Positions 5,196-56,229 of a stretch of 58,811 bases of DNA are shown here, piece by piece; the first letter of the stretch is position 1; every line of letters starts with the position of its first letter. The position numbers were made by a program, and so were the translations under genes. The stretch comes from a bacterium (lineage in GTDB: Bacteria > Electryoneota > JAOADG01). The notes below the pieces were generated by a model. That model was not told the DNA's origin, did no database searches, and worked only from the letters and a program-made list of their open reading frames with translations. Location: assembly GCA_030247525.1 (NCBI GenBank), contig JAOTSC010000003.1:1-58811 (forward strand), written 5' to 3'.

Positions 5196-5290
5196 GGGGG
5201 CTCGGGATTCGGATTTCGGGGCTCAGGGTAGGGACGGACCCCCACGCCCGCCAATCGATGACCCCGTACGTCGGACATTCTTGTCCGACG
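5196..5290. repeat. Intragenic block of G-tract heptads plus two REP-like hairpins
   Basis: gggggctcgggattcggatttcggggctcagg, gtagggacggacccccacgcccgcc and ccgtacgtcggacattcttgtccgacg. The last is the same family as the hairpins flanking the RAYT gene. Confidence 0.8.
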
Positions 5291-5382
5291 ACGTAATGGA
5301 AAACGACTTACCCGAAATGCTGCGTCGCCATCCCGCGCGTAAGAATGTTCCGATGAAGAGTCATGCGTTGAAATTTCACTTC

Positions 5383-5618
5383 GTGAAGGGTGAAGGGTTA
5401 AAGGTCAAGGGTGAAGGGTTAAAGGTCAAGGGTGAAGGGTCAAAGGTCAAGGGTGAAGGGTCAAAGGTGAATGGTGCAAGGGAAACTAAAGAAGTTTCTG
5501 AGAACCTTGACCAGTCTTTTTCTACTCAACACCCTTCACCTTACACCTTACACCAATCTTTTTCCACCCTACACCCTACTCCTTACACCTTACACCAATC
5601 TTTTTCCACCTTACACCG
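5383..5618. repeat. Intragenic inverted pair of GGTGAAGGG-type heptad arrays (G-arm 5383-5480, C-arm 5528-5618)
   Basis: A 21-nt unit aaggtcaagggtgaagggtta occurs about 4 times and is translated as KVKGEGL repeats. It is followed by the complementary caccttacaccttacacc arm, translated as PYTLHQSFSTLH repeats. Confidence 0.9.
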
Positions 5619-5858
5619 TGCTGAAACACGCAGTGTTGAAGCGCAGGGAGAGCTCCCCTGGAAGAATAATTATTTCTTAGGCAACGACTCTTCGCGGTGG
5701 GCACCGAATTGCCGGAACTTTTCTTCGGTCGTGTATCGGGAAGTGTGGGAAAGAATCGATGTTGAATGGTATGAAAACGATGGCAAATTGGAATTCGATT
5801 TCATCGTCCATCCCGGCTTCGATCCCAATCAGATTCGGATGTCGGTGGAAGGATTAGA

Positions 5859-6580
5859 GGGGGATCGGATTTCGGGGTTCGGGGCTCCGGAATCGTTACT
5901 GTCATTGCGAGGCAGCGCAGCGACGAAGCAATCCCATTTGGATAATGGGGAACGGGGGACAGGGGACAGTAGGGGCGGACGCCCCTGTCCGCCCGACAGT
6001 AGGGGCGTGCCGCGCACGCCCGCAGTTACAGGCGTAAGTCAGACAATCCTGTCTGACAAGTATTCCAGTAGGGGCAGACCCTCTGGGTCGCCCGCAGAGA
6101 ATGTTCGTGACCTGCTTCGCGATTCACGAACCACTGAAGGAACTGTACATCGGCAAAAAATGTCCGACGACAACACCAGTAGGGGCGGACGCCCCTGTCC
6201 GCCCGATGGAAAAGAAAATGTTCGTGACCTGCTGCGCGATTCACGAACCACTGGAGGTACTAGTCTGTCTTTGCGAGGAATGGAACGTAGGATCGTCAGC
6301 CGCGAGGCTGACAGCCGCAGTGAAATGACGAAGCAATCTCATTTGGAAATCGGGAACAGAGAACCGGAGACAGGGAGCAGTAGGGTCAGACCCCAGAATA
6401 GTCAGTCCGATGGAAAAGAAAATGTTCGCGACATGGTTCCCGAGTCGCGAACCACTGTAGGAATTTCTTCTCGAACCCCGAATACCGAATCCCGAACCCC
6501 TACGAATGGAACCCCGAATACCGAATTCCGAACCCCTACGAATGGAACCCCGATTGCCCAATCCCCATTGCCCATCACCG
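5859..6580. repeat. Intragenic pile-up of REP-like hairpins and heptad arrays (about 0.7 kb), all in frame
   Basis: Elements present: gtaggggcggacgcccctgtccgccc twice (5969, 6179); gtaggggcagaccctctgggtcgccc (6068); gtaggggcgtgccgcgcacgccc (5999). Also aatgttcgtgacctgc(t/g)tcgcgattcacgaaccac three times (6099, 6217, 6421) and ccgaataccgaatcccgaaccccta heptads (6478-6580). Confidence 0.85.
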
Positions 6581-8405
6581 AGCTTCTCCTACCAACATCC
6601 TTGGGGGAATTGCGAACGGCACTGCCAAGTGTGTATCAAATCTCGGCAAATGGTACTCGCAATGAAATCGATGCGACGTTCCAATTAACCGACCAAAACA
6701 CGTTCGGAATCACGCTCCCGAACGGCTACAATCCCGACCATTCTTTGCGCATCGATCCCCTCATTTACAGTACCTATTTAGGGGGGAGTGGTGCTGATTA
6801 TGGATCTGACCTGTGTGAGGTTGGGAATGGAAATGTTGTTGTTTTGGGATCAACACAAAGCTTTGAGTTTCCAATCACAATAGGTAGCTATCAATCGTGG
6901 TTAAACGGAAGTACAGATTGGTTTGTTACAGAACTCAATAGTAGTGGTTCACAACTGGTTTTTAGTACTTATATCGGAGGAACCTTAAGTGATTACAATA
7001 ATCGAATTCTCAGAGCAGGCGATAACTCGTTGATCATTACCGGTTATACTCGTAGCACTGACTTTCCAGAATATAATCGATTGGGTGTATGCGGTAGCAT
7101 TGACGGGTTAATAGTTACTCTTAGTAGTAACGGATCACAACTACTTACTAGTACTAGAATCGGTGGGTCGAGTGATGATGATATTCGACCAATTATACCT
7201 GATGAAACAGGTGGATATTATGTTGGTTGCGGTACTTTGAGTGTTGATTACCCAATAACTGCCAACGCGTTTGATACCTCCGCAAACGGACAGAGTGACG
7301 GTTGCATTATGCGGTTTAACAACAACTTCACACAGATACTTTACAGCTCTTACTTTGGTGGCTCGATGAATGAGAACATTACCGATGTTTGTCTGTCGCC
7401 AGCTGGTGGAATTGTAGTAACTGGGTTAACATTGAGTGCAAATTTGCCTGTTACATCTACTGCAATTGACTCAACCATTAGCGGAGATTATGATTGTTTT
7501 GTCGCAAAATTTGATGCCTCATTATCATCCCTTTTATATAATACATTTCTCGGCGGCTTAGGCTATGATTCAGGATCAAACATCGTTTGCGATAGTAGCG
7601 GAATTGTTGTAACAGGTGCGGCGGGTGCAGGATTTCCAGTAACCAGTTGTGCTTTGGATACGACCTATCATGGAGGTATGGATTGCCATGTCACAAAACT
7701 GAGATTGGATGGGTTACAACTTGTTTTCTGTACCTACTTAGGTGGGATTGGAGATGATCATGGTTACTGTATCGATCTAGATGATCATTATAATTATATC
7801 GTTGCAGGAAGAACCCAAAGCGTAGATTTTCCAACGACCGCTATGTCTCTATTTCCAACAAATCAGGGGCAACAAGATGGTTTTGCATTGCTTCTCAATT
7901 CAGATGGTTCACAGTTATTGTATAGTACATTTTTGGGTGGGTTATCGGAGGATCGACTTAATTCACTCACTTTACTCAGAGATAGTGTTATTACAGTAGT
8001 TGGTTCTACAGCAAGTGTTAATTATCCAATTACCAACAATAGCTATGACACAACCTACAACGGTGGTTCAAGTGACTGTATTGTTACAAGACTTTTTCTA
8101 AACATTGACACTAACGATGTCGCAAACGAACAATACAAACTACCCGAACTGTATTCATTATCCCAAAACTACCCCAACCCCTTCAACTCATCTACCACCA
8201 TTTCCTATTCACTGCCAAAACCGGGGAATGGTTGAACTGAGACTATTCGACATCACGGGGCGCGAAGTGACTACCCTCGTTAACCAGAAACAGCAAACCG
8301 GAAGCTATCGGGTGACGTTCGATGGAAAGAATCTTTCGTCGGGAACTTATTTTGTGCGGATGCAAGCGGGGGAATTTGTGAAGACGCAGAAGATGGTGCT
8401 CTTAA

Positions 8406-32054: not shown

Positions 32055-32561
32055 CTACACCGTACGTTGGACATTCCTGTCCAACGGGCCAGACGAGTAA
32101 ATGTAGTACTTATACTCCTCACCCTCTTTCACCAACCCGGCACGAATCGGATTCCACCAAATGTACTCAATTGTTTTGCCGTACTCGTCATCATTTCGAA
32201 TGATTCTGTCCATATACTCTTGTAACCAGACACTACCATTTCGATTTCTACCGGCATTAATCATGCGAGAACTAGAGCCTTTAATGCCCTTCATAATTTG
32301 AGCCAAAGAATACCATTTTCCGTTAATGTCTTATAGTGGCATAAGCACCAAATGCACATGATTATACATGACCACACCAAAGTACAATTGGAAGTACTTC
32401 GCTGCTCCGGTTAGAATAACTGTTCGTATTAGCTCGCGCTCCGAGCATGAAAACTCTTTCAATACTGATGTAAAAGTGACAAAGTAGAGACTTCCACCCA
32501 ATTCCCAATGTGGTAAGTGACCTCGGCGCTTGATTAGCTCATTCGGCGAGTATTCCTTCAC
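32055..32561 (-). pseudogene. REP-associated tyrosine transposase (RAYT, IS200/IS605-like Y1 HUH enzyme) interrupted by one in-frame TAA
   Basis: ORFs 32331..32561 and 32055..32306 are in the same frame, separated only by TAA (32331-32333). HUH motif in YNHVHLVLMP; catalytic-Tyr motif YIWWNPIRAGLV. The 3' end runs into a REP hairpin. Confidence 0.8.
32060..32088. repeat. REP hairpin (TTGGACA family) at the 3' flank of the RAYT gene
   Basis: ccgtacgttggacattcctgtccaacggg is the reverse complement, apart from one loop base, of the copies upstream of the RAYT gene. Confidence 0.9.
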
Positions 32562-32595: not shown

Positions 32596-32733
32596 CCCGT
32601 TGGACAAGAATGTCCAACGTACAGGAACAAACCTACAACTTAGTTTTAAGCCCGTTGGACAAGAATGTCCAACGTACGGGAACAAACCTACAACTTAGTT
32701 TTAAGCCCGTTGGACAGTTTAGTCCAACGTACG
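32596..32733. repeat. BIME-like tandem array: 2.5 copies of a 55-nt unit, each starting with a TTGGACA-family REP hairpin
   Basis: cccgttggacaagaatgtccaacgtac(a/g)gg starts at 32596 and 32651, and a variant at 32706. The spacer gaacaaacctacaacttagttttaag is identical between units. Confidence 0.9.
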
Positions 32734-43621: not shown

Positions 43622-43653
43622 ATTGAACTAAACAACCGAATGGAAATGTGCGA

Positions 43654-44601
43654 ATGAGTGAACCGACCCACACGATAACCCAAACGGTGAGCGATACGCT
43701 CCACGCGGCGCAATCCGTTGCCGGCCATGCCGCCGAACACGGCGCGGAGCATGGCGCTCACGACTACTCGTTCGCCCACGATTCGCTTTGGACCGGGCAG
43801 GATTTGACCTACAATCTACTCGATCACCATCTCGAATTCCTTCCCGATTGGGGAACTTTTACCCTCACGAAGCACGGTTTTATCCTCGCATTAGCGGCGT
43901 TCGTCTTGGTCATTTTTGCGACGCTCGCCGGCAAGTCCGCGAAGAAACGGATGGGGAAAGCCCCGACCGGGTTAGGTAATTTCCTCGAAGTGTTCGTGAA
44001 GTTCATTCGCGACGATGTGGTCTACCCTGCAATGGGTGAGAAGTTGGGCAAACACCTCCTCAATTACTTCCTGACTGCCTTCTTTTTCATTCTGTTCGGT
44101 AATCTTGCCGGACTCATCCCCGGATCGAAATCGCCGACGATGAATATCGCGGTAACGATGGGGATGGCGGTGATGACGTTTATCCTGATGATTTATAGCG
44201 GGGTGCGCGTCCACGGGTTGTGGGGCTTTTTGAAGCATTTCGCCCCGCCCGGTATTCCGTGGCCCGTCTACTTTATTCTGACCCCGATAGAAATTGTCGG
44301 ACTCTTCGTAAAACCGTTCGCATTAACGATTCGTCTCTTTGCGAATATGGTGGCGGGAAAAGCGCTGGTGCTTTCATTCATCGGACTGATTTTTATGTTG
44401 GGTAGCGCGCTGGGCGCCGGGGCGGCATTCGGTATTGGACTGCTCCCATTTGCGGGCGGCGTCGGTATCATGTTGCTGGAAATCTTTGTCGCATTTTTGC
44501 AGGCGTTCATCTTTACCATGCTGTCGGCGCTGTTCATTGGACAACTGGCAACGGCACACGACGAACACGACCACGAACATGGTCACGAGCATGCGCATTA
44601 A
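43654..44601 (+). CDS. atpB: F0 ATP synthase subunit a, with His-rich N- and C-terminal extensions
   Basis: Conserved Arg in LTIRLFANMVAG and a multi-TM core. N-terminus AGHAAEHGAEHGAHD; C-terminus HDEHDHEHGHEHAH. Confidence 0.9.
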   Translation: MSEPTHTITQTVSDTLHAAQSVAGHAAEHGAEHGAHDYSFAHDSLWTGQDLTYNLLDHHLEFLPDWGTFTLTKHGFILALAAFVLVIFATLAGKSAKKRMGKAPTGLGNFLEVFVKFIRDDVVYPAMGEKLGKHLLNYFLTAFFFILFGNLAGLIPGSKSPTMNIAVTMGMAVMTFILMIYSGVRVHGLWGFLKHFAPPGIPWPVYFILTPIEIVGLFVKPFALTIRLFANMVAGKALVLSFIGLIFMLGSALGAGAAFGIGLLPFAGGVGIMLLEIFVAFLQAFIFTMLSALFIGQLATAHDEHDHEHGHEHAH

Positions 44602-44788
44602 TTGATTTTTTCGCGCGATAAATATGAGGCACAGCCTCGACGCGCACGCCGGATATGGAAAATCCGGTATCGGTTAGGGCATATTTTTTACTAATGCCCA
44701 ACGCAGACAGGATTGTCCGCGCCACCGAACCCTTGCCTAAAGCGTGATGCGGGCAAGTGATTGGAAAGGAACGGTACGTCTTTCAACT

Positions 44789-44877
44789 GTACGTCGGACA
44801 TTCTTGTCCGACGGGCGTGAAGGAAAAGAGGCGTGTCGGATAACGTTAACATCGACCGACAGGAATGTCGGTCGTGC
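44789..44877. repeat. Two TTGGACA/CGGACA-family REP hairpins in the 300-nt atpB-atpE spacer
   Basis: gtacgtcggacattcttgtccgacggg (44789-44815) and cgaccgacaggaatgtcggtcgtgc (44853-44877). Confidence 0.9.
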
Positions 44878-44902
44878 AGAATACAAATAAGGAAGCACTT
44901 TC

Positions 44903-45130
44903 ATGGGAAATGAAGCATACGCACTGTTGTCCGCCGGTATCGGCGCAGGTCTTGTGGTTATCGGCGCCGGACTCGGCATCGGCCGCCTCGCTGGCGAAGC
45001 GATGCAAGGAATCGCCCGGCAACCGGAAGCGACCGCGAAAATTCAAACGGCTATGATTATCGCCGCCGCCCTTATCGAAGGCGTCGCGTTGTTCTGCGCC
45101 GTTATTTGCTTACTGTTGTCGTTCAAATAA
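44903..45130 (+). CDS. atpE: F0 ATP synthase subunit c
   Basis: 75-aa hairpin protein with the GIARQPE loop and ion-binding Glu in ALIEGVALF. Confidence 0.95.
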   Translation: MGNEAYALLSAGIGAGLVVIGAGLGIGRLAGEAMQGIARQPEATAKIQTAMIIAAALIEGVALFCAVICLLLSFK

Positions 45131-45134
45131 AAAC

Positions 45135-45200
45135 GGGAACAGGGTACAGGGGTTAGGGAACAGGTAAAGCACTGTTCCCCGTTCCCCGTTCCCCATTCCC
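45135..45200. repeat. GGGAACA-type heptad inverted repeat (long hairpin, or G4-capable G-arm) between atpE and atpF
   Basis: gggaacagggtacaggggttagggaacag / ctgttccccgttccccgttccccattccc. The core stem gggaacag (45156-45163) pairs with ctgttccc (45172-45179). The G-arm fits G3N4G3N4G4N3G3. Confidence 0.9.
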
Positions 45201-45210
45201 TGAGGGAACC

Positions 45211-45705
45211 ATGAATCCAATTGAATTGGTAACGCCCAACGTCGGAATGTGGTTTTGGACGACGCTGCTATTCTTAGCGGTGCTCATCATCCTGCGGAAA
45301 ACCGCGTGGGGTCCGATTGTCAAGGCGCTCGAAGAACGCGAGAAGACGATTGCCGACGATTTGAAGCGCGCCGAATCTGCCCGTGTCGATGCCGAAGGGG
45401 CGCGGGAAAGTCTGCTCAAGGAACAGGCGAAAATGCTTGCCGAGCAGAATGACCGGGTCGCCCAGATGATGAAGAATGCGGAACATCGCGCCGCCGACAT
45501 CATCGAACAGGCAAAAGTCGAAGCGCAGAAGCAGCGGGAAACCGCTACCGCCGAAATCGAACGCGAGAAGCAAAAAGCCATCGCCTCGATTCGCAGCGAA
45601 GTCGTAACGGTAGCGCTCAATGCCGCGCAAGCGGTGATCGGCAGAGAGTTGAAGCCGGAAGACCATCAGCGCTTGATTGAACAATCGATCAATCATTTGA
45701 ACTAA
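45211..45705 (+). CDS. atpF: F0 ATP synthase subunit b
   Basis: N-terminal TM helix followed by a long charged coiled coil. Position between atpE and atpH. Confidence 0.85.
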   Translation: MNPIELVTPNVGMWFWTTLLFLAVLIILRKTAWGPIVKALEEREKTIADDLKRAESARVDAEGARESLLKEQAKMLAEQNDRVAQMMKNAEHRAADIIEQAKVEAQKQRETATAEIEREKQKAIASIRSEVVTVALNAAQAVIGRELKPEDHQRLIEQSINHLN

Positions 45706-45779
45706 GGGTGTATGGTGAAAGGTGAAGGGTGAAAGGGATCTTCATGCCACCTTACACCCTACACCTTATACCTTTCACC
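45706..45779. repeat. GGTGAAAGG heptad inverted repeat (imperfect long hairpin) between atpF and atpH
   Basis: The G-arm (45706-45737) and C-arm (45747-45779) are complementary; for example ggtgaaagg (45714-45722) pairs with cctttcacc (45771-45779). Confidence 0.9.
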
Positions 45780-45790
45780 GCAAGGAAGAA

Positions 45791-46327
45791 ATGAGCTTAT
45801 TAGTATCACGCTACGCGGAGCCGTTGTACCTTGCCGCGAAAGAGACCGGCGAATTGGAAACGGTGACTGCCGACATGGCGGCGCTGGGTATGCTGTTGGT
45901 TTCCGGCGAATCGGGAAAAGTATTCGCGGAATACTTGTTATCGCCCCAAGTGTCGCGCAAGGAAAAGCTCGATACGTTGCTTGCGGTATTCGCCAGCGGC
46001 AGTAAAATCACTCGGAACTTTTTTCAGGTGGTAATTGAACGCGGGCGCGAAGAACTCCTGCTCGAATTGCCGGATGAGTTTCTTAAGCGAATGAAAAAAG
46101 AAGCGGGGATCGTCTCGGCAAACTTGATTAGTTCGATTGCACTCACCGAAAAACAAGTAAAGGCGATGGCGGAGAAAATCGGGAAATCGATTCACAAACA
46201 AGTCGAATTGACGTCGGAGACCGATGCTTCGTTGTTGGGCGGTTCGATTCTGGAACTGGAAGGGAAACGGTACGACGCCTCGCTCAAACGTCAATTAGAC
46301 GACCTGAAACAGGCGTTGTTGGCGTAG
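45791..46327 (+). CDS. atpH: F1 ATP synthase subunit delta (OSCP)
   Basis: MSLLVSRYAEPLYLAA... is an OSCP-type N-terminus, with AGGAAG upstream of ATG 45791. The longer tracked ORF (from 45722) merely reads through the repeat. Confidence 0.8.
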   Translation: MSLLVSRYAEPLYLAAKETGELETVTADMAALGMLLVSGESGKVFAEYLLSPQVSRKEKLDTLLAVFASGSKITRNFFQVVIERGREELLLELPDEFLKRMKKEAGIVSANLISSIALTEKQVKAMAEKIGKSIHKQVELTSETDASLLGGSILELEGKRYDASLKRQLDDLKQALLA

Positions 46328-46340
46328 GGGCGGGTGTAAA

Positions 46341-46405
46341 CCGTAGGACAGACACTCCTGTCTGTCCACAATGATTCCGATGGACAAGAATGTCCATCGT
46401 ACGGG
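46341..46405. repeat. REP doublet (GACAGACA family plus GGACAAGAATG family)
   Basis: ccgtaggacagacactcctgtctgtccac (46341-46369) and ccgatggacaagaatgtccatcgtacggg (46377-46405). Confidence 0.9.
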
Positions 46406-46420
46406 ACATCGAAGAGAAAA

Positions 46421-46741
46421 ATGAATCCACGGATTTTGCAAATCGCTGGGGAATTGAAGAGGCGGCTGGAACCGCTGTACGGCGAGCGGTTGCAAAAGGT
46501 CGTGGTCTTCGGTTCCTATGTGCGTGGCGAAGAGACTGACGAGTCGGATTTAGACGTCGCGATTGTGTTGGATCCAAAATATGACGATTTAACTGAGTGG
46601 AATTTAGCGGGATCGCTCTTTGTCGAAATCGATTTAGCGTTTGATGTGGTCGTCGATACGCATATAATTTCGCTCGAAGAATACAATGACCGGGATTATG
46701 CGATACTTCGCGCTATCCATAGCGAAGGGGTGACGGTGTGA
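46421..46741 (+). CDS. Minimal nucleotidyltransferase (MNT) antitoxin of a HEPN-MNT toxin-antitoxin pair
   Basis: GSYVRGEETDESDLDVAIV is the GSxxRGx(n)DxD NTase motif. Overlaps the downstream HEPN gene by 4 nt. Confidence 0.85.
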   Translation: MNPRILQIAGELKRRLEPLYGERLQKVVVFGSYVRGEETDESDLDVAIVLDPKYDDLTEWNLAGSLFVEIDLAFDVVVDTHIISLEEYNDRDYAILRAIHSEGVTV

Positions 46742-47118
46742 ACGAACTTGTAGCGTTGCACTTGAAGCGTGCCGAGCGATTTCTGGTCGAAGCGAATTTT
46801 ACTCTGACGAACGAGTTCTTCGATGCGGCGATCAACCGTTCCTACTATGCGATGTTTCATGCGGTAACCGCAGTACTGAAAACGGAAGATGTGGCGCGCA
46901 GTTCTCATGCCGGTGTGATTGCCGCATTTAATCAGTTCTTTGTCAAACCGGGTAAATTCACCGAGGTAGAAGGGCGTTGGCTCAAACACGGCTTTGAAAC
47001 GCGCAATAAGAACGATTATTGGCCGGCGCCGGAGAACAGTGAAGCGGAAGCGCTGCAATTATTTGAAGAAGCGAAGGCGTTTGTAGCGAAGTGTCGGGAG
47101 TATTGCGAAGGAGCGTAG
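46738..47118 (+). CDS. HEPN-domain toxin of the HEPN-MNT pair
   Basis: Helical protein with AINRSYYAMFHAVTAVL and ETRNKNDY motifs typical of PF05168-type HEPN domains. Confidence 0.85.
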   Translation: MNELVALHLKRAERFLVEANFTLTNEFFDAAINRSYYAMFHAVTAVLKTEDVARSSHAGVIAAFNQFFVKPGKFTEVEGRWLKHGFETRNKNDYWPAPENSEAEALQLFEEAKAFVAKCREYCEGA

Positions 47119-47244
47119 GGACGCAAATTATCGCATCCGAGACAATATCCGGGTTCGATGAACCCAACGCATTTCTAGCGTTGGTTCACAAACACCGATG
47201 ATTTTTCAATTCGTGTTTGTAATTGAACCCCTACAACGTTGCCC

Positions 47245-47324
47245 CGACATTCTTGTCGCGGAGTTGGAGGTTAGGCAATCTTGCCTGACTGAGGAAGAGC
47301 GACGGACAAGAATGCCCATCGTAC
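47245..47324. repeat. REP cluster; includes the left copy of the 26-nt direct repeat bracketing the TM-protein gene
   Basis: cgacattcttgtcg (47245-47258), ttggaggttaggcaatcttgcctgac (47264-47289) and cgacggacaagaatgcccatcgtac (47300-47324). Confidence 0.9.
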
Positions 47325-47424
47325 AGTAGTGGGACAGAAGGAAGCGGGAAAGTGGGAACGTAGCGACAAAGCTCCTGCTTTGTCATCGTCTTTGGAATTG
47401 TATTAACAACTGGAGGTGATACCA

Positions 47425-47820
47425 ATGTATTCTTCAGAACCAGATGACTGTTCTAAAGATGATCAACATCAGGATTTGATCGAGATAACTCCAGAACTAG
47501 TTAGGAAGGTGAGGATATTCAAATATTCTTTTTGGACTCTTAGAACGATTTTTCTATCATTTGCTATACTAATCATGTATTCGGGGTTTATCTTTGCGGG
47601 TTTTGTTTTTAAAATACCATTTATAGATAAAATCAAGGATGATACTTTGTTTATGTTTTTTTATTTTATTGCATCGGTAGTATTTGGTTTTGTCATGTTG
47701 AATCTTGTTTGTAAGGTTGGTGTTGTTGATAGATTATTTAATAAGATCGACAATAAATATGAATACTATAAAGAGCTGTTGTGCGTTTATAATTATGATA
47801 GAAAATCTCATAAGTGTTAG
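47425..47820 (+). CDS. Small AT-rich membrane protein, unknown function (two predicted TM helices)
   Basis: GGAGG lies 8 nt upstream of ATG 47425. Hydrophobic segments TIFLSFAILIMYSGFIFAGFVF and LFMFFYFIASVVFGFVMLNLV. No family recognised. Confidence 0.5.
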   Translation: MYSSEPDDCSKDDQHQDLIEITPELVRKVRIFKYSFWTLRTIFLSFAILIMYSGFIFAGFVFKIPFIDKIKDDTLFMFFYFIASVVFGFVMLNLVCKVGVVDRLFNKIDNKYEYYKELLCVYNYDRKSHKC

Positions 47821-47896
47821 TAAAAATCTAATTGTTTGATTTTGTGTCATTGTCCTTGAAATCATACATCGTGCAAACGAGGGTGTTTGTACTTAC

Positions 47897-47950
47897 GGGC
47901 GACCCCGAGGGTCTGCCCCTACAATTGGAGGTTAGGCAATCTTGCCTGAC
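47897..47950. repeat. REP doublet; includes the right copy of the 26-nt direct repeat
   Basis: gggcgaccccgagggtctgcccctac (47897-47922). ttggaggttaggcaatcttgcctgac (47925-47950) is identical to 47264-47289. Confidence 0.9.
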
Positions 47951-48037
47951 CAAATCAAATTTCACATCTCTCCTCACAGTGTGTGAAGTTTGAGTTTAGT
48001 CTCTGAAACAGGTTCAATCAACTTTGATGGTGGAGAG

Positions 48038-48757
48038 ATGTTAAGCGAAGAAGCAATAAAAAATGAAATAGATTCTTTGCTAAAAATGGGCGACGAACTA
48101 TTTTTAAATTTGGAAGGAGTAATGTTTCGTAGACATTATCCCCTATGGTATGGAAAATCATTGCCCTACATACATGAGTATAATAGTCTCTGCTATAATG
48201 ATTTTATAATGTGCTTTAAAAACGAAACAAGAAAAGAAATTACAGCTAGTACTTATACATTGTCGGATTATATTATCGGTGTATACCAAGTCAGCTCTGG
48301 ATATCAAATAAATGTACAATATGCTGTGCGTGGTCTCCTAGATATTCAAATTGGACTATTAAATGCGTGTATTAGTACGATTGATGGGTCATTAAACAAA
48401 CTAAAAAACTTTGTTCGAGCTGATTTGTTTTACAGTGAATTAGAATCGGCAGAATATTTGTGTCAAAATAAATTCTATCGAGCAGCAGGAAACATAGCTG
48501 GTATTGTAATTGAGAGGCACTTAATTCACATATGTAATGATTTAGAGATCGTGTTACCTAATAAACCAACGTTAGGTGTTGTAATTGATCGTTTATATGA
48601 TGCCGACCGAATAGATGATGTTGAAAAGTTGAGATTGAAGCACCTTAATGAAATCAGAGTAAAATGTGATCACGTAAAAGAGACCGAACCAAATGAAGCT
48701 GAAGCAAAGAATATTTTATTCGGTGCACGAGAAACTCTTAGTAAAAACTATGTATAG
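48038..48757 (+). CDS. AT-rich hypothetical protein with a C-terminal HEPN-like (DUF4145-like) Rx4H motif
   Basis: The C-terminal pattern TLGVVIDRLYDADRIDDVEKLRLKHLNEIRVKCDH resembles DUF4145/HEPN (L..I..L....i......L..iR....H). R is at 48656-48658 and H at 48671-48673. The start is uncertain (TTG 47990 or ATG 48038). Confidence 0.5.
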   Translation: MLSEEAIKNEIDSLLKMGDELFLNLEGVMFRRHYPLWYGKSLPYIHEYNSLCYNDFIMCFKNETRKEITASTYTLSDYIIGVYQVSSGYQINVQYAVRGLLDIQIGLLNACISTIDGSLNKLKNFVRADLFYSELESAEYLCQNKFYRAAGNIAGIVIERHLIHICNDLEIVLPNKPTLGVVIDRLYDADRIDDVEKLRLKHLNEIRVKCDHVKETEPNEAEAKNILFGARETLSKNYV

Positions 48758-48810
48758 TGATTTATCAAATTGTGTAAAGTTGAAAACGCAACCAATCAGG
48801 AACCAACTGC

Positions 48811-50319
<1,509 letters not shown>

Positions 50320-50322
50320 ATA

Positions 50323-50387
50323 GGGGGCAGGGAACAGGGGACAGTAAACAGTTTTGCACCGTTCCCTGTTCCCCGTATCCCGTTCCC
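50323..50387. repeat. GGGAACAGGGG heptad inverted repeat after atpA (hairpin plus T-run; attenuator/terminator-like)
   Basis: gggaacaggg (50330-50339) pairs with ccctgttccc (50364-50373). The C-arm is followed by tttt (50388-50391). Confidence 0.85.
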
Positions 50388-50405
50388 TTTTCTGATTGGT
50401 AAAAT

Positions 50406-51269
50406 ATGCCATCTCTCAAACAGACGAAACAGCGCATCGTCAGCGTGAAGTCGACGCAACAGATCACCAAAGCGATGAAGATGGTGGCGGCGGCGAAATT
50501 ACGGCGGGCGCAAAATAATATGCTGGCGGCGCGTCCGTACTCGCACCGGTTGCGCAACGTCATCGCCGAAATGGCGGGACGCACCGACTATAGCCACCCG
50601 TTGTTGGTGGAACGAGCGCCGGAGCAAGTCGGGTTTGTCGTCGTTGCCTCCGACCGCGGGCTCGCCGGCAGTTTCAATACGAATGTGATGAAACGCGCCG
50701 TTGCCGCGTACAACGAACATGAAGGGGCTGACCGCTTCCTGATTACCGTAGGCAGGAAAGCGACCGACTTCTTTACGAAACGCGGCTACAACGTCATTTC
50801 CAAGCATCTCGACATTTTTCCCGACCCGACGCTGGAAAAGTCGCGCCGTATCAGCGATAACATCATCGCGAAATATTACAATGAGATGATTGGACTTGAC
50901 CGCGTCTACTTGGTTTACAACGAATTCAAAAATGTCGTCCAACAACAAATCATTGTCGAACAGCTCCTCCCGATTATTCCGGCGGAAGAGGAGAAGGGCG
51001 GATTTCATCAGGATTTCCAATTTGAACCGTCCCCGGAAGCGATTCTCGATGTAGTGTTGCCGCAGTACATCAATGTCGCTATCTGGCACGTGCTGCTCGA
51101 ATCGTTTGCTGCGGAAATGGCAGCGCGTATGACGGCGATGGAGAATGCGACAAAGGCGGCGTCCGATATGATTTCCGCATTAACGTTGCAATACAACAAA
51201 GCGCGGCAGAGTGCGATTACGAAAGAACTACTCGAAATTGTCGCCGGCGCGGAAGCGCTGAAAGGGTAG
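50406..51269 (+). CDS. atpG: F1 ATP synthase subunit gamma
   Basis: N-terminus MPSLKQTKQRIVSVKSTQQITKAMKMVAAAKLRRAQ and C-terminus ITKELLEIVAGAEAL are canonical AtpG termini. Confidence 0.95.
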   Translation: MPSLKQTKQRIVSVKSTQQITKAMKMVAAAKLRRAQNNMLAARPYSHRLRNVIAEMAGRTDYSHPLLVERAPEQVGFVVVASDRGLAGSFNTNVMKRAVAAYNEHEGADRFLITVGRKATDFFTKRGYNVISKHLDIFPDPTLEKSRRISDNIIAKYYNEMIGLDRVYLVYNEFKNVVQQQIIVEQLLPIIPAEEEKGGFHQDFQFEPSPEAILDVVLPQYINVAIWHVLLESFAAEMAARMTAMENATKAASDMISALTLQYNKARQSAITKELLEIVAGAEALKG

Positions 51270-51370
51270 GGACTCGGGGTTCGGAATTCGGGAATCGGTG
51301 TTGGGTGTTGGGGAAAGATGGTGAAGGGTGTAAGGTGAAAGGTGTAGGGGAAGACAATGTGGGTCGCCCG
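51269..51370. repeat. Heptad arrays plus a truncated REP; left bracket of the HicAB-DinB module
   Basis: gggactcggggttcggaattcgggaatcgg (51269-51298). ggtgaaaggtgtagggg-N9-tgggtcgcccg (51334-51370) matches 52412-52448 in the same orientation. Confidence 0.85.
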
Positions 51371-51428
51371 AAGTAGGGTGAAAGTATTGGGAAAGCTCGC
51401 AAAGATATTTCAGCAAATACTTTCATGA

Positions 51429-51653
51429 CGTTCGGATACGAACATCCGTTTCGACGATCTTCGTGCCGTTCTTTTACAATTAGAATTTTCGGAACGGATT
51501 CGCGGAAGTCATCATATTTTCGTTCGTGACGACTTCGAAGAGATAATAAATATTCAACCGACGGAAAACGGAAAAGCAAAACCGTATCAAGTGAAACAGA
51601 CGAGAAATCTGATTGTAAAATACCGGTTGAAAGGATTTGACGATGAAGTATGA
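51429..51653 (+). pseudogene. HicA-like toxin gene lacking a canonical in-frame start codon
   Basis: The open frame reads ...NIRFDDLRAVLLQLEFSERIRGSHHIFVRDD...GKAKPYQVKQTRNLIVKYRL, with a GSHH core. A TGA lies at 51426-51428 just upstream, and there is no ATG/GTG/TTG before the conserved core. ATG 51425 lies in another frame. Confidence 0.5.
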
Positions 51654-51849
51654 AGTGATTTTGTACTGGAGCGAAGACGATCAGGCATTTGTAGCCGAAG
51701 TGCCAGAATTACCGGGCTGTGCCGCCGATGGGAGAACCTATCGGGAAGCGTTTGAGAATATCGAAATCGTCGCGCAGGAATGGATGGAAACCGCTCGCGA
51801 ATTGGGTAGAAATGTTCCGGAACCGAAAGGTCGTTTGATTTTTGCATAG
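51643..51849 (+). CDS. HicB-like antitoxin (UPF0150 fold)
   Basis: The MKYEVILYWSEDDQAFVAEVPELPGCAADGRTYREA pattern is typical of the HicB N-terminal domain. Overlaps the hicA-like stop. Confidence 0.7.
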   Translation: MKYEVILYWSEDDQAFVAEVPELPGCAADGRTYREAFENIEIVAQEWMETARELGRNVPEPKGRLIFA

Positions 51850-51855
51850 GATTGG

Positions 51856-52356
51856 ATGGTATCGATGAGTGTTAGTGAGAATATGAAGTGGGTGTATGGC
51901 GTTCACGATTATGCGGTGAATGTCAACCTCGCCGGTATTTCCGATGCGGAGTCGCGAAGGCGGATGGAGCCGGGCGGAAATTGCGTAAATTGGATTATGG
52001 GACACATGCTCTGTTCCCGCGTCCATATTCTCGGTTTTCTCGGTTGCGACTGGACAAAGACGAATGCCGTACTCGAGCCGTATCAGCGGGGAACCAGCGG
52101 CGCTGATTTCGATTCTTTTCTTACTCTGGATGAATTGACAAAACTGTGGCAGGAGTCGTCGGAGCTTTTGAAAACGAACATCGATGCGACGACCGATGAA
52201 CAGTGGTTGGAACCGGCTTCGCTGCCCGGTACGGGATTCGATAAACCGGATACGCGGGAGCGCCGGGTATTCTTTCTATCGTTCCATGAAGGATACCATT
52301 TAGGACAAATCGGATTATTACGTCGGTTACTTGGTAAAGAAGGCGCGATAAAATAG
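51856..52356 (+). CDS. DinB-family (DinB_2) metal-dependent four-helix-bundle protein
   Basis: His triad context (WIMGHMLCSRVH ... FHEGYHLGQIGLL), and a length of about 165 aa. Confidence 0.75.
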   Translation: MVSMSVSENMKWVYGVHDYAVNVNLAGISDAESRRRMEPGGNCVNWIMGHMLCSRVHILGFLGCDWTKTNAVLEPYQRGTSGADFDSFLTLDELTKLWQESSELLKTNIDATTDEQWLEPASLPGTGFDKPDTRERRVFFLSFHEGYHLGQIGLLRRLLGKEGAIK

Positions 52357-52539
52357 GTGAAAGGTGTAGGGTGAAAGGTGTAGGGTGAAAGGTGTAGGGT
52401 GAAAGGTGTAGGGTGAAAGGTGTAGGGGCTGACCCTCTGGGTCGCCCGGTGATGGGTGATAGGTTTTGGGGATTGGATAGCGACAGGTCTTCAGACCTGT
52501 AAAAAAGAAAATAGCAATTCTGGAGAATTGCCAGTACCC
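52356..52539. repeat. 14-nt tandem array (ggtgaaaggtgtag x5) plus three REP hairpins. Contains the right bracket of the HicAB-DinB module and the left bracket of the nuclease-HicAB module
   Basis: Tandem array 52356-52425. gtaggggctgaccctctgggtcgccc (52422-52447), tagcgacaggtcttcagacctgt (52478-52500) and gcaattctggagaattgccagtaccc (52514-52539). Confidence 0.9.
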
Positions 52540-52708
52540 AATCCGAACAATGGCGCTATTGCGGGAAGCTTTTGTCGATAGCGATCTGCCGTTTCGGGTC
52601 GATGAGGTGGAAAAGAGAGAGTTGAACGCAAGTGAACAAACTCTGATAACCTTGTAGTAGTCGAGATAGGCTCGACAATCTAATTAATTAAAAACAAGGA
52701 GTAAAATC

Positions 52709-53549
52709 ATGATTATCGAACAAGCGTTTTTTGGATTACCGGAATTGTGTGCAAATAAGAGTAGTTTGAGCGAAGCATTTATCAGATCGTGTTTCAGTCA
52801 TAGTATTTTACAAGAATTAATTGCACGTGGAGTTCCTTATCCAATAACAAAAATTCAACACGAATATGTTTACGAAGAATTACAAAAAGGAAATAAATTC
52901 CATGCAGATTTGTGTTTGACGTTGAATGATGAGAAGTATGTAAATAGGATGTCTATATGGGGACAAAAAAAACAACAACATAATTGAAATGAAGCTTATT
53001 AGAAATTATGACAAAAAAGATGGTTCAGAAAACAAGCAAGGCGTAATAAACAATGGGTACTTGCTCGATTCATTATTGCGTCTATCTATCTTACCGAAAA
53101 TTGAAATTGCACAAAAAAACAGCGGTGAGTTGAAAAATAATTCAGTTGGAAGATATTTACTACATGTGTATTTAGGAGAACCTGATCAATTCTTAGCCTA
53201 TAAGGATCAAAAAGGTGATGAAAGATTATGGGTGAAGAATCTTATCGAAGGTGAACAGAACGTAGAACTAGAACCTGCACGTGAAAAGTCCGGACATCTT
53301 CTGGCGATATATTCTAAGTACGGAAATGTTGTTCTGTTGAAAATGTCGATTAGAAGTATCAAAATTAAATCATTTATGAAGAAAGGTATAACTTTTGTCT
53401 TAAGTAAGATAAATTCTTTTCAGCTGAAAACAAATGAAGGAATGTATAATGAAAATGAGTTTGGTTCTTTCGATCAATCGCAATACAGTGTTTTGAAAAA
53501 CGCAAGAAACCAGAGCTTGTTTAATGTTAAAAGTAATCAAAACACATGA
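52709..53549 (+). pseudogene. AT-rich PD-(D/E)xK-like putative nuclease split into two ORFs at an A8 homopolymer
   Basis: AAGGAG RBS before ATG 52709. ORF1 carries FHADLCLTL (candidate catalytic D). The ORF2 frame is open upstream of its ATG and reads IIEMKLI (candidate ExK). The frames differ by +1, and removing one A from the A8 run (52965-52972) fuses them into a protein of about 279 aa. Confidence 0.45.
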
Positions 53550-53743
53550 AAGTCCGTGAGATAATAAAACTAATAGAAAAAGACGGTTGGTACTTGGTGA
53601 CGACCAAAGGAAGTCATCGGCAATTCAAGCACCCTGAAAAACCGGGACGTGTGACAGTTCCGGGACACGTTGGAGAGGATATGCCGGAAGGCATTCGGAT
53701 TTCTATCTTGAATCAAGCCGGATTGCGGAAGAGAGGAAAGTAA
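53546..53743 (+). CDS. hicA: HicA toxin (YcfA-type mRNA interferase)
   Basis: MKVREIIKLIEKDGWYLVTTKGSHRQFKHPEKPGRVTVPGH is canonical HicA. ATGA overlap with the upstream ORF. Confidence 0.9.
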   Translation: MKVREIIKLIEKDGWYLVTTKGSHRQFKHPEKPGRVTVPGHVGEDMPEGIRISILNQAGLRKRGK

Positions 53744-53744
53744 T

Positions 53745-54020
53745 ATGCGGTACGAGTATGCTATCTTCATCGAACGGTCGAAAAGCCGGTATTGGGCTTC
53801 CGTACCCGATCTTCCGGGTTGTGTTTCCTGTGGAAAATCGTTAGAAGAATTGCAAAAAAATATCCAAGAAGCCATCGAATTTCATTTGGAAGGGATGGTC
53901 GAAGATGGATTACCAATCCCGAAACCGGTGACAAAAGCAAGTATGGTGGAAGTGGAGCGTCCGACCCGGCGAAAAGCAATACGTCGGATTACCAGGACGA
54001 CGGTACGCGGTCATGAGTAG
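53745..54020 (+). CDS. hicB: HicB antitoxin
   Basis: YAIFIERSKSRYWASVPDLPGCVSCGKSLEELQKNIQEAIEFHLEG is the HicB/UPF0150 domain. Starts 2 nt after the hicA stop. Confidence 0.85.
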   Translation: MRYEYAIFIERSKSRYWASVPDLPGCVSCGKSLEELQKNIQEAIEFHLEGMVEDGLPIPKPVTKASMVEVERPTRRKAIRRITRTTVRGHE

Positions 54021-54183
54021 AGGCGTATTGCAATACGCCCATCGTGTGACGGGCTTGGAAGCCCGTAACCACCCAAACGGGACGGGTAGCGACAGGTCTC
54101 CAGACCTGTAAAAAGAAAATGTGCAATTCGGGAGAATTGCCGGTACCCAAGTGAATTTGAGGGCGTATGCCATACGCCCCTAC
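54017..54183. repeat. REP cluster of five hairpins; contains the right bracket of the nuclease-HicAB module
   Basis: Hairpins at 54017-54040, 54051-54074, 54086-54109 (gtagcgacaggtctccagacctgt), 54123-54148 (gcaattcgggagaattgccggtaccc) and 54161-54183. Confidence 0.9.
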
Positions 54184-54294
54184 ACCGCGACAGGAATACG
54201 AACCCGGACAGATGATTCATCGGAGTTCGTGATTCTTCGCTGCTTCACATGCGAAGAATTGTCGCGGCCACAAAAGAATGTTTTGGAACAATAG

Positions 54295-55809
<1,515 letters not shown>

Positions 55810-55824
55810 TCGAAACACGGTGGT

Positions 55825-56229
55825 ATGATGGCGATCACATTTGAAATCCTAACGCCTCGCGGAGTTGTGTTTCAATCGGATGTAAAATCGGTTCGGTTAC
55901 CGGGTGTTGCCGGCGAGTTTGGGGTGCTGCCCGGTCACGTACCCTTTATCACCGCACTACAGGCGGGTGTCATCGAACTTGATACCACCGAGAGTAAGCA
56001 CGAAAAGATCGCGGTATCGGCGGGCTTTGTCGAAGTCCTTCCCGAGAAGGTTGTGGTCTTGGCAGAGACAGCCGAAACTGCGGCAAACATTGATGTTACG
56101 CGGGCGGAATCCGCCCGCAAACGCGCCGAGGAAGGGTTGCGGGCCGCTACCGACCGGGTCGAAGCGGAACAGTACCAAGCAGCGCTATCTCGAGCGAAAT
56201 CACGTATTAAGGCAAAAACAAATTCATAA
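55825..56229 (+). CDS. atpC: F1 ATP synthase subunit epsilon
   Basis: 134 aa, with a beta-sandwich N-terminus (LPGVAGEFGVLPGHVPFITAL) and a helical C-terminus. Follows atpD. Confidence 0.9.
   Translation: MMAITFEILTPRGVVFQSDVKSVRLPGVAGEFGVLPGHVPFITALQAGVIELDTTESKHEKIAVSAGFVEVLPEKVVVLAETAETAANIDVTRAESARKRAEEGLRAATDRVEAEQYQAALSRAKSRIKAKTNS

Follow-up and report, generated by a model that had tools for sequence, protein, structure and literature searches.

A divergent member of a widespread HEPN-like family and an orphan two-TM protein within an ATP synthase operon

Two AT-rich genes and the family of the larger one

The DNA analyzed here (the window, i.e., the whole 58.8-kb stretch of the bacterial contig JAOTSC010000003.1, to which all coordinates refer) has a GC content of 49.3% and contains a 1.5-kb AT-rich block with two genes: a small open reading frame (ORF) for a protein with two predicted transmembrane (TM) helices (gene 1 or TM ORF) and, downstream of it, a larger HEPN-like gene (gene 2; Table 1). 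Judged from its sequence, the larger protein belongs, as a divergent member, to an unnamed and widespread family of ~250-aa proteins, in which a conserved helical N-terminal domain is combined with a C-terminal DUF4145-like HEPN domain. The smaller protein, with its two predicted TM helices, is an orphan specific to the lineage, and no link to gene 2 could be demonstrated. Both genes differ strongly in composition from the window, with a GC content of 29.5% and a GC content at third codon positions (GC3) of 29% for gene 1, and of 32.9% and 25%, respectively, for gene 2. Their stop-free runs of 137 codons (TM ORF) and 255 codons (HEPN-like ORF) were matched by none of 2000 shuffles of the AT-rich stretch in which each of them lies (0/2000 in both cases), so that chance does not account for either reading frame. 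The M1 that is invariant in the family aligns with the ATG of gene 2 at position 48038, and the same start was chosen in an independent gene call on another contig (L082, see below).

Relatives of the gene 2 protein proved to be numerous. When 1.84 billion cluster representatives were scanned exhaustively with phmmer, 786 of them matched at E ≤ 1e-3 (429 when the threshold was E ≤ 1e-10), and the best 150 of the 786 matches were nearly all full-length, to proteins of ~250 aa; the one relative (P0002) that a word-indexed search had found is misleading beside this number. P0002 itself, in the stretch L001 10001–11552, is 32% identical to the window protein, and its surroundings resemble a prophage, with genes for a tape-measure protein and a prohead protease. 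In an alignment of 72 family members, conservation spans the full length (for the scanning of loci, the family alignment A1 contained too much diversity, and a tighter set, A2, took its place). The N-terminal part carries the motif YxxWY...PDR...DF...Y...RK and the C-terminal part the motifs ...R-AAG-x-AG-VV-LE-x-HL... and ...L-x-D-I-R-N-L-C-D-H...EPT, with R148 and R207 invariant and E159, H161, N208, C210 and H212 conserved in at least 90% of the 72 members. The window protein keeps R148, E159, H161, R207 and H212, and is a long-branch member of the family, with 30–37% identity to its relatives as compared to 45–60% among the others. When used as a tblastn query, it matched no phage and one megaplasmid.

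When the 72 members were scanned singly, weak matches emerged: the Pfam HEPN model PF05168 matched 27 of them (best E-value 2.7e-7), DUF4145 (PF13643) 22 (best 7.6e-6) and RiboL-PSP-HEPN four. Since these matches are reached by the relatives and not by the window protein, the profile link to HEPN is transitive only. The family profile also aligns its RNxxxH motif with the RN motif of a classical HEPN protein encoded in the same window, albeit as a weak match. An AlphaFold2 model built on the family alignment is confident (pLDDT 95.3) and consists entirely of helices, and its top Foldseek matches in the PDB are HEPN proteins only (2hsb, 1o3u, 5yep (HEPN toxin), 9bj7 (AbiV), 6m6u (HepT), 1wol and 1ufb), with probabilities of 0.9–1.0 and TM-scores to the target of 0.56–0.66 over 112–127 columns. 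The HEPN proteins matched by fold include AF_0298, TM0613, the SO_3166 HEPN toxin, AbiV, HepT and Csm6. A profile search of the PDB with the family alignment yielded spurious coiled-coil matches only. Taken together, the transitive sequence evidence, the fold and the motif make the HEPN assignment sound. We also considered whether a HEPN dyad had arisen by internal duplication and rejected this idea, as hhalign aligned the N-terminal half with the C-terminal half at a probability below 1%.

The N-terminal domain (~140 aa) is strongly conserved and appears to be undescribed in the libraries searched. It had no match in the PDB or in BFVD, the viral structure library that gave one partial HEPN-like match for the protein, and no N-terminal domain in Pfam, AbiJ-NTD models included, matches the N-terminus of the family. 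PADLOC and NCBIfam, run on the 72 members, gave one marginal Cas13-ApeA match and nothing else, and no model covers the family. In public records, almost all members are annotated as 'hypothetical protein' and one as 'HEPN domain-containing protein'. For the window protein itself, nothing significant was found in PADLOC, NCBIfam or PDB sequences, and PHROGs gave one marginal match only.

Gene 1 is preceded by the Shine–Dalgarno (SD) sequence GGAGGTG, ~7 nt before the ATG at 47425, and its product has hydrophobic segments at residues ~38–67 and ~72–105. No homologue of this protein was found in 5.8e9 clustered proteins (word-indexed search) or in the flanks of 81 loci of the HEPN-like family, neither phage nor plasmid DNA contained a tblastn match, and nothing significant was retrieved from Pfam, PADLOC, NCBIfam, PHROGs or PDB sequences. 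The single-sequence AlphaFold2 model is a helical hairpin of low confidence (pLDDT 67.6), for which Foldseek returned no structural match.

A preliminary description of this DNA, made from the sequence alone, had reported two AT-rich genes next to a classical MNT-HEPN pair, and both ORFs as well as the pair, which Pfam recognizes, are indeed present. Its account of gene 1 as a 131-aa two-TM protein with a good SD agrees with the two hydrophobic segments and the GGAGGTG sequence. It had further assigned a HEPN-type C-terminus ending in R-VKCD-H to a helical protein of ~240 aa, a call corroborated by the Pfam matches of the relatives, the modeled fold, the invariant R207 and the conserved H212 (at least 90%), and the structural comparison that it suggested led to HEPN proteins as the top PDB matches for the larger model and to nothing for the smaller. 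That it recognized no described family for either N-terminal region is likewise borne out: such a family covers neither protein, nothing significant having emerged from Pfam, PADLOC, NCBIfam and PHROGs. The TM ORF had also been described as exactly bracketed by identical 26-nt repeats: the repeats are identical and do bracket the gene, and the word 'exactly' is loose, given that 135 nt separate the upstream copy from the start of the gene and 104 nt its stop from the downstream copy.

Genomic setting and REP-like repeats

The AT-rich block is part of the first of two accessory islands that break the complete F1Fo ATP synthase operon (atpBEFH...AG...DC) at two intergenic junctions, resulting in the gene order atpB, atpE, atpF, atpH, island 1, atpA, atpG, island 2, atpD, atpC. 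According to the ORF listing and Pfam, the block and the MNT-HEPN pair are inserted between atpH and atpA, a placement that is absent from the preliminary description. Every inserted gene of both islands has the orientation of the operon. Toxin–antitoxin (TA)-type cargo within an essential operon is unusual, and this local context is a genomic curiosity that bears on how accessory genes settle within core operons. The MNT-HEPN pair has a host-like GC content of 49–51% and is context, outside the AT-rich block; at the motif position of its classical HEPN protein the sequence reads R-N-K-N-D-Y, a Y occupying the place of the expected catalytic H. In island 2, two adjacent AT-rich ORFs without a Pfam match lie just upstream of hicA and hicB.

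Table 1. Main genes, islands and repeats of the window
Feature	Position	Strand	Remarks
TM ORF (gene 1)	47425–47820	+	131 aa from ATG, two predicted TM helices; GTG at 47416 would give 134 aa
HEPN-like gene (gene 2)	48038–48757	+	239 aa from ATG; 255 aa from TTG at 47990
R-x4-H motif	48656–48673	+	R207-V-K-C-D-H212
26-nt repeat, two copies	47264–47289; 47925–47950		TTGGAGGTTAGGCAATCTTGCCTGAC
Upstream mosaic	47213–47324	+	GTGTTTGTAATT, CCCCTACAA head, 27-nt insert with inverted class-I REP half, 26-nt hairpin, class-I REP at 47300–47324
Downstream mosaic	47883–47950	+	GTGTTTGTACTT, class-II REP hairpin with CTAC head at 47896–47923, 26-nt hairpin at 47925–47950
Class-I REP hairpin	46378–46402	+	CGATGGACAAGAATGTCCATCGTAC; upstream of MNT; one of seven window copies
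F1Fo ATP synthase operon	43648–56229		Interrupted at two junctions
atpH	45722–46327		Pfam OSCP
Island 1	46328–48810	+	MNT, HEPN, TM ORF, HEPN-like gene
MNT	46421–46741	+	Pfam NTP_transf_2/Polbeta, E = 4e-10; NCBIfam MntA; PADLOC PDC-S09 for the pair
Classical HEPN	46738–47118	+	Pfam HEPN, E = 2e-13; 4-nt overlap with MNT
atpA	48811–50319		
Island 2	51270–54303	+	HicB-like, DinB-like, two AT-rich orphan ORFs, HicA, HicB
72-nt repeat pair	51320–51391; 52398–52469		79% identical; flanks HicB-like and DinB-like genes
67-nt repeat pair	52475–52541; 54084–54150		87% identical; two small hairpins; flanks AT-rich ORFs and HicAB
AT-rich orphan ORF	52709–52987	+	92 aa; GC ~32%
AT-rich orphan ORF	52989–53549	+	186 aa; GC ~32%
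HicA	53546–53743	+	
HicB	53745–54020	+	
RAYT-like/IS200-like Y1 transposase	32055–32561	-	One in-frame stop; joined protein Pfam Y1_Tnp, E = 1.6e-5

A comparison with an empty site or a related strain could not be drawn from the metagenome collection, where the relatives of AtpH were only ~30% identical. Look-ups of the exact proteins led to two fragmentary contigs only (L082 and L083, Logan), both from sample SRR20819803 and both breaking inside the HEPN-like gene: one of 7.4 kb stops within the 5' part of this gene, and one of 2.8 kb begins within its 3' part. As identical proteins were found on these contigs only, the source organism appears in a single public dataset.

The 26-nt repeat has exactly two copies in the window (chance expectation 0), and no further copy was found there with up to 3 mismatches; in the metagenome collection, a 24-mer query gave 0 matches. 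Each copy forms a hairpin (GGTTAGGCAA-tc-TTGCCTGACC) and ends a longer shared unit of ~50 nt, consisting of GTGTTTGTA[A/C]TT and CCCCTACAA followed by the 26-mer. This unit is interrupted by an inserted hairpin, and the two copies differ both in the hairpin and in its point of insertion. The upstream mosaic in which the first copy lies folds as a nested hairpin (minimum free energy −42.6, z −3.5), and in the downstream mosaic the 26-nt hairpin directly abuts the CTAC head.

Other components of these mosaics resemble repetitive extragenic palindromic (REP) elements and belong to dispersed families. The class-I hairpin (GTAC-G..GGACA-AGAA-TGTCC..) has seven copies in the window, some of which flank the gene of a Y1 transposase resembling REP-associated tyrosine transposases (RAYTs). 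Class-I REPs, among them a 55-nt triple tandem, flank it at 32062–32088 and 32598–32732, and the gene itself, given its in-frame stop, is either a pseudogene or recoded. Class-II hairpins with a GTAGGGG head are located at 5967, 6066, 6177, 47896 and 52420, and one at 54163 has a variant stem; the hairpins at 6066–6095 and 52420–52447 are of the same family as the one in the downstream mosaic. The sequence CCCCTACA, which corresponds to GTAGGGG on the opposite strand, occurs five times in the window (at 47228, 47916, 51343, 52421 and 54177; chance expectation 0.78). All five copies are in island spacers: three separate inserted units from one another, and the remaining two mark the ends of island 2 towards atpG and atpD. 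Three of the five head GC hairpins, namely two of the class-II family (as at 5967–6206) and one with the different stem at 54163. Arrays of 7- and 14-nt repeats are found at several sites of the window. The region 5200–6600 comprises ~1.4 kb of almost nothing but repeats (7/14/21-nt arrays of GGTGAAG type, class-II REPs and families of 36, 42 and 61 nt), and REP families and 7/14-nt arrays also fill intergenic regions outside the islands at 5.2–6.6 kb, 8.4 kb and 31–32.7 kb. Since every spacer of both islands holds REP-like elements, flanking repeat pairs arise almost by default.

Two other identities were considered for the 26-mer and dismissed. It is not an intrinsic terminator, as no T-run follows it and it was not called as one. 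Integron attC sites are imperfect palindromes of at least ~57 bp with the order RYYYAAC...GTTRRRY; the 26-mer, with GTTAGGC..GCCTGAC (GTTRRRY...RYYY(G)AC), shows these elements in reverse and measures no more than 26 nt. Rfam recognized no family anywhere in the window, so that the hairpins are not a known RNA. The 26-mer is best read as a putative low-copy piece of mosaics resembling REPs and bacterial interspersed mosaic elements (BIMEs), and its two copies are no evidence of a functional gene pair.

Family neighborhoods and the weighing of explanations

To see what accompanies the family elsewhere, 80 loci from many phyla were fetched and, with the contig of P0002, gave 81 loci besides the window. 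An all-against-all comparison of the flanking ORFs of the resulting 82 loci revealed no conserved neighbor family; recurrent clusters were antisense ORFs inside the gene itself only. A same-strand adjacent ORF with at least two hydrophobic segments was present in ~14 of the 81 loci, which is not above a rough estimate for two random neighbors, and these small membrane neighbors showed no similarity to one another or to the TM ORF of the window. The Pfam content of the neighbors was heterogeneous (107 families in 114 neighbors), the commonest domains being those of type I restriction–modification (R-M) systems (Methylase_S, N6_Mtase, ResIII, HSDR_N), integrases, KAP NTPase and PIN. Family members are mostly solitary or embedded in R-M systems. 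Indeed, all six tightly operonic loci that were checked place the family gene inside an R-M operon, in the arrangements hsdR-[gene]-hsdMS, hsdM-[gene]-hsdS, hsdS-[gene]-Schlafen/AlbA and methyltransferase-[gene].

On this evidence, we consider it probable that the AT-rich block consists of two independently explicable foreign genes in an accessory island at atpH–atpA, gene 2 being a stand-alone latent RNase of the HEPN family, gene 1 an orphan and the repeats REP-like. The island would have colonized the atpH–atpA junction of the ATP synthase operon, and gene 2, by analogy with characterized HEPN proteins, would code for a latent RNase. Typically, HEPN domains form dimers with a composite R/H active site. 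The regulatory or sensing part would likely be the conserved N-terminal domain, which would keep the protein inactive until an infection or stress cue arrives; once triggered, the protein would cut RNA and growth would stop, following the logic of abortive infection or of a toxin. The placement of the family gene within R-M operons elsewhere would fit a second-line or guard role beside R-M.

Several observations weigh against this account. The Foldseek E-values are weak (0.14–2), and the window protein has no HEPN-clan or other profile match in Pfam at E ≤ 1. It also departs from the family at near-invariant sites, with V in place of N208 and S and C in place of P50 and R52 of the N-terminal 'PDR', and given these losses it may be impaired or re-specialized. 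RNase activity, dimerization, activation by a trigger and a role in defense are inferred for the gene 2 protein by analogy. The neighbor analysis was based on raw ORFs and a crude hydropathy rule and not on curated gene calls. Moreover, a 211-aa multi-TM protein without a Pfam match is encoded 125 nt downstream of P0002, and the near-identical odd composition, adjacency and co-orientation of the two AT-rich genes of the window have the look of a jointly acquired operon that was later split by mobile REPs.

The latter points lead to the idea, put forward in the preliminary description, that the two genes form a defense or TA module. In its fullest form, this idea would unite the products of genes 1 and 2 in one abortive-infection or TA module from a low-GC donor, with the membrane protein as effector, anchor or antidote, and REPs would have invaded the spacer later; we regard this as unlikely. 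A union of HEPN with a membrane protein is not without example, Cas13b-Csx28 being one. Here, the genes are adjacent on one strand and share their anomaly (GC 29.5% and 32.9%, GC3 0.29 and 0.25), but the island 2 orphan ORFs have the same composition (GC 32%), which points to low GC as a general trait of foreign DNA at this locus and makes the shared low GC weak evidence of a joint origin. An invasion of the spacer is conceivable, as REPs can in principle move and the window contains a RAYT-like gene; yet the gap of 217 nt between the two genes, whose middle 125 nt have a host-like GC content (49.6%) and hold two stable REP-type hairpins, is atypical of coupled pairs. The multi-TM protein downstream of P0002 recalls the window, as does the 'HEPN-TM' of phage-inducible chromosomal islands (PICIs), mentioned in PMC12948488, as a case of HEPN plus membrane logic. 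Against these parallels stand a TM protein without any homologue in the searches made, the lack of a conserved partner in the 81 loci, multi-TM neighbors that are mutually dissimilar and at the level of a rough background (~14/81), and a family that is mostly solitary or R-M-embedded. The two genes were found together nowhere else, an outcome that the preliminary description had named as refuting its idea, although this is trivially so, gene 1 being an orphan. The claim of a membrane protein and HEPN pair thus lacks support, and the HEPN call of the same description was right.

We think it improbable that the block is decaying foreign DNA, in which the HEPN-like gene is catalytically dead or being lost, the TM ORF is non-functional and neither is of use to the cell. 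Both frames are intact in DNA of 30% GC (0/2000 shuffles), the TM ORF has a good SD, the AlphaFold2 model is confident and the core set R148/E159/H161/R207/H212 is complete; on the other side, the window protein is a long-branch member (30–37% versus 45–60% identity) without N208 and PDR, and the TM ORF is an orphan. Just as doubtful, in our judgment, is a scenario that takes the 26-nt and the other repeat pairs of the islands for recombination sites capturing promoterless cassettes one by one into the ATP synthase operon, in an integron-like or a REP/RAYT-directed manner, with the TM gene as one cassette. Four units each have a pair of their own (MNT-HEPN, 25 nt, 92%; TM, 26 nt, 100%; HicB-like and DinB, 72 nt, 79%; AT-rich ORFs and HicAB, 67 nt, 87%), the inserted genes are all co-oriented with the operon, five of five CCCCTACA copies are in spacers of the two islands, and TA modules together with orphan ORFs generally recall integron arrays. 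In the integrase-independent form of this scenario, the 25-, 26-, 67- and 72-nt pairs would be footprints of REP-directed capture, the TM gene being one cassette and the HEPN gene the next, a version that we likewise consider improbable. If true, such a process would fill spacers within an essential operon with co-oriented genes of TA type, of defense type and without relatives. However, the same REP families and arrays elsewhere in the window make flanking repeats the default expectation, the 26-mer is in the reverse order of attC and far shorter, the RAYT-like gene has an in-frame stop and no empty site was found for comparison. No integrase was seen adjoining the islands, intI elsewhere in the window not having been searched for.

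The reading preferred here, of two independent foreign genes, shifts the useful outcome from the pair to the family: ~800 clusters at 50% identity in many bacterial phyla, absent from Pfam (as a family), NCBIfam and PADLOC. Given its repeated placement in R-M operons, this family may reasonably be regarded as a candidate RNase that acts alone in abortive infection, or as a candidate guard of R-M.

Relation to known systems

The repeats around gene 1 are reminiscent of REP/BIME elements with their RAYTs, in that short GC hairpins with GTAG/GTAC heads are intergenic, dispersed and clustered in mosaics, and a Y1 transposase gene is flanked by hairpins. The 26-mer differs in being present just twice in the 58.8 kb and not at all in the metagenome collection, and its membership of a dispersed family is putative.

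With the type VII TA system MNT-HEPN (MntA-HepT), gene 2 shares a HEPN-fold product: HepT structures are among its fold matches, and a genuine pair lies upstream. It differs in that it lacks an MNT of its own, codes for a protein of twice the size of HepT and has the extra N-terminal domain. Moreover, gene 2 lies 920 nt beyond the classical HEPN gene, and the neighbors of the family are not MNTs.

The anticodon nucleases PrrC and RloC sit in R-M operons (PMC3710099), and family loci such as L057 and L067 have the gene between hsdR and hsdM/S, as in the case of prrC, which suggests a latent RNase guarding R-M. In contrast, the N-terminal ABC-ATPase of these nucleases is missing here (no P-loop or ABC match in Pfam for the window protein or the family members), and there is no R-M system near the window gene. 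RAZR (PD-T7-4) is a single-protein DUF4145-HEPN RNase that acts by abortive infection and is dead when R or H is mutated; its N-terminal part is a Cys4 zinc finger, and phage ring proteins trigger its assembly (PMC13017515). With one polypeptide made of a non-catalytic N-terminal domain and a C-terminal DUF4145-type HEPN domain, it is the closest characterized analogue in architecture and, for a solo gene built in this way, the best one in function, whereas the N-terminus of the window protein is predicted to be all-helical and has no Cys4 pattern. Because it has neither a zinc-finger nor an ABC-ATPase N-terminal domain, the family belongs to neither the RAZR nor the PrrC/RloC group.

A further comparison is that with DUF4145-like HEPN proteins (PF13643, HEPN clan) in general. 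The window protein reaches no HEPN or DUF4145 model and its N-terminal YxxWY...PDR...DF domain is unmatched in Pfam, but the likeness extends to the C-terminal helical HEPN domain with R-x4-H, the solo or R-M-associated occurrence, the distribution over many phyla and the variable N-terminal domains. DUF4145-type and other HEPN domains are known to occur in R-M operons (PMC3710099, Anantharaman et al. 2013), and the R-M embedding of the present family corresponds to this already described pattern.

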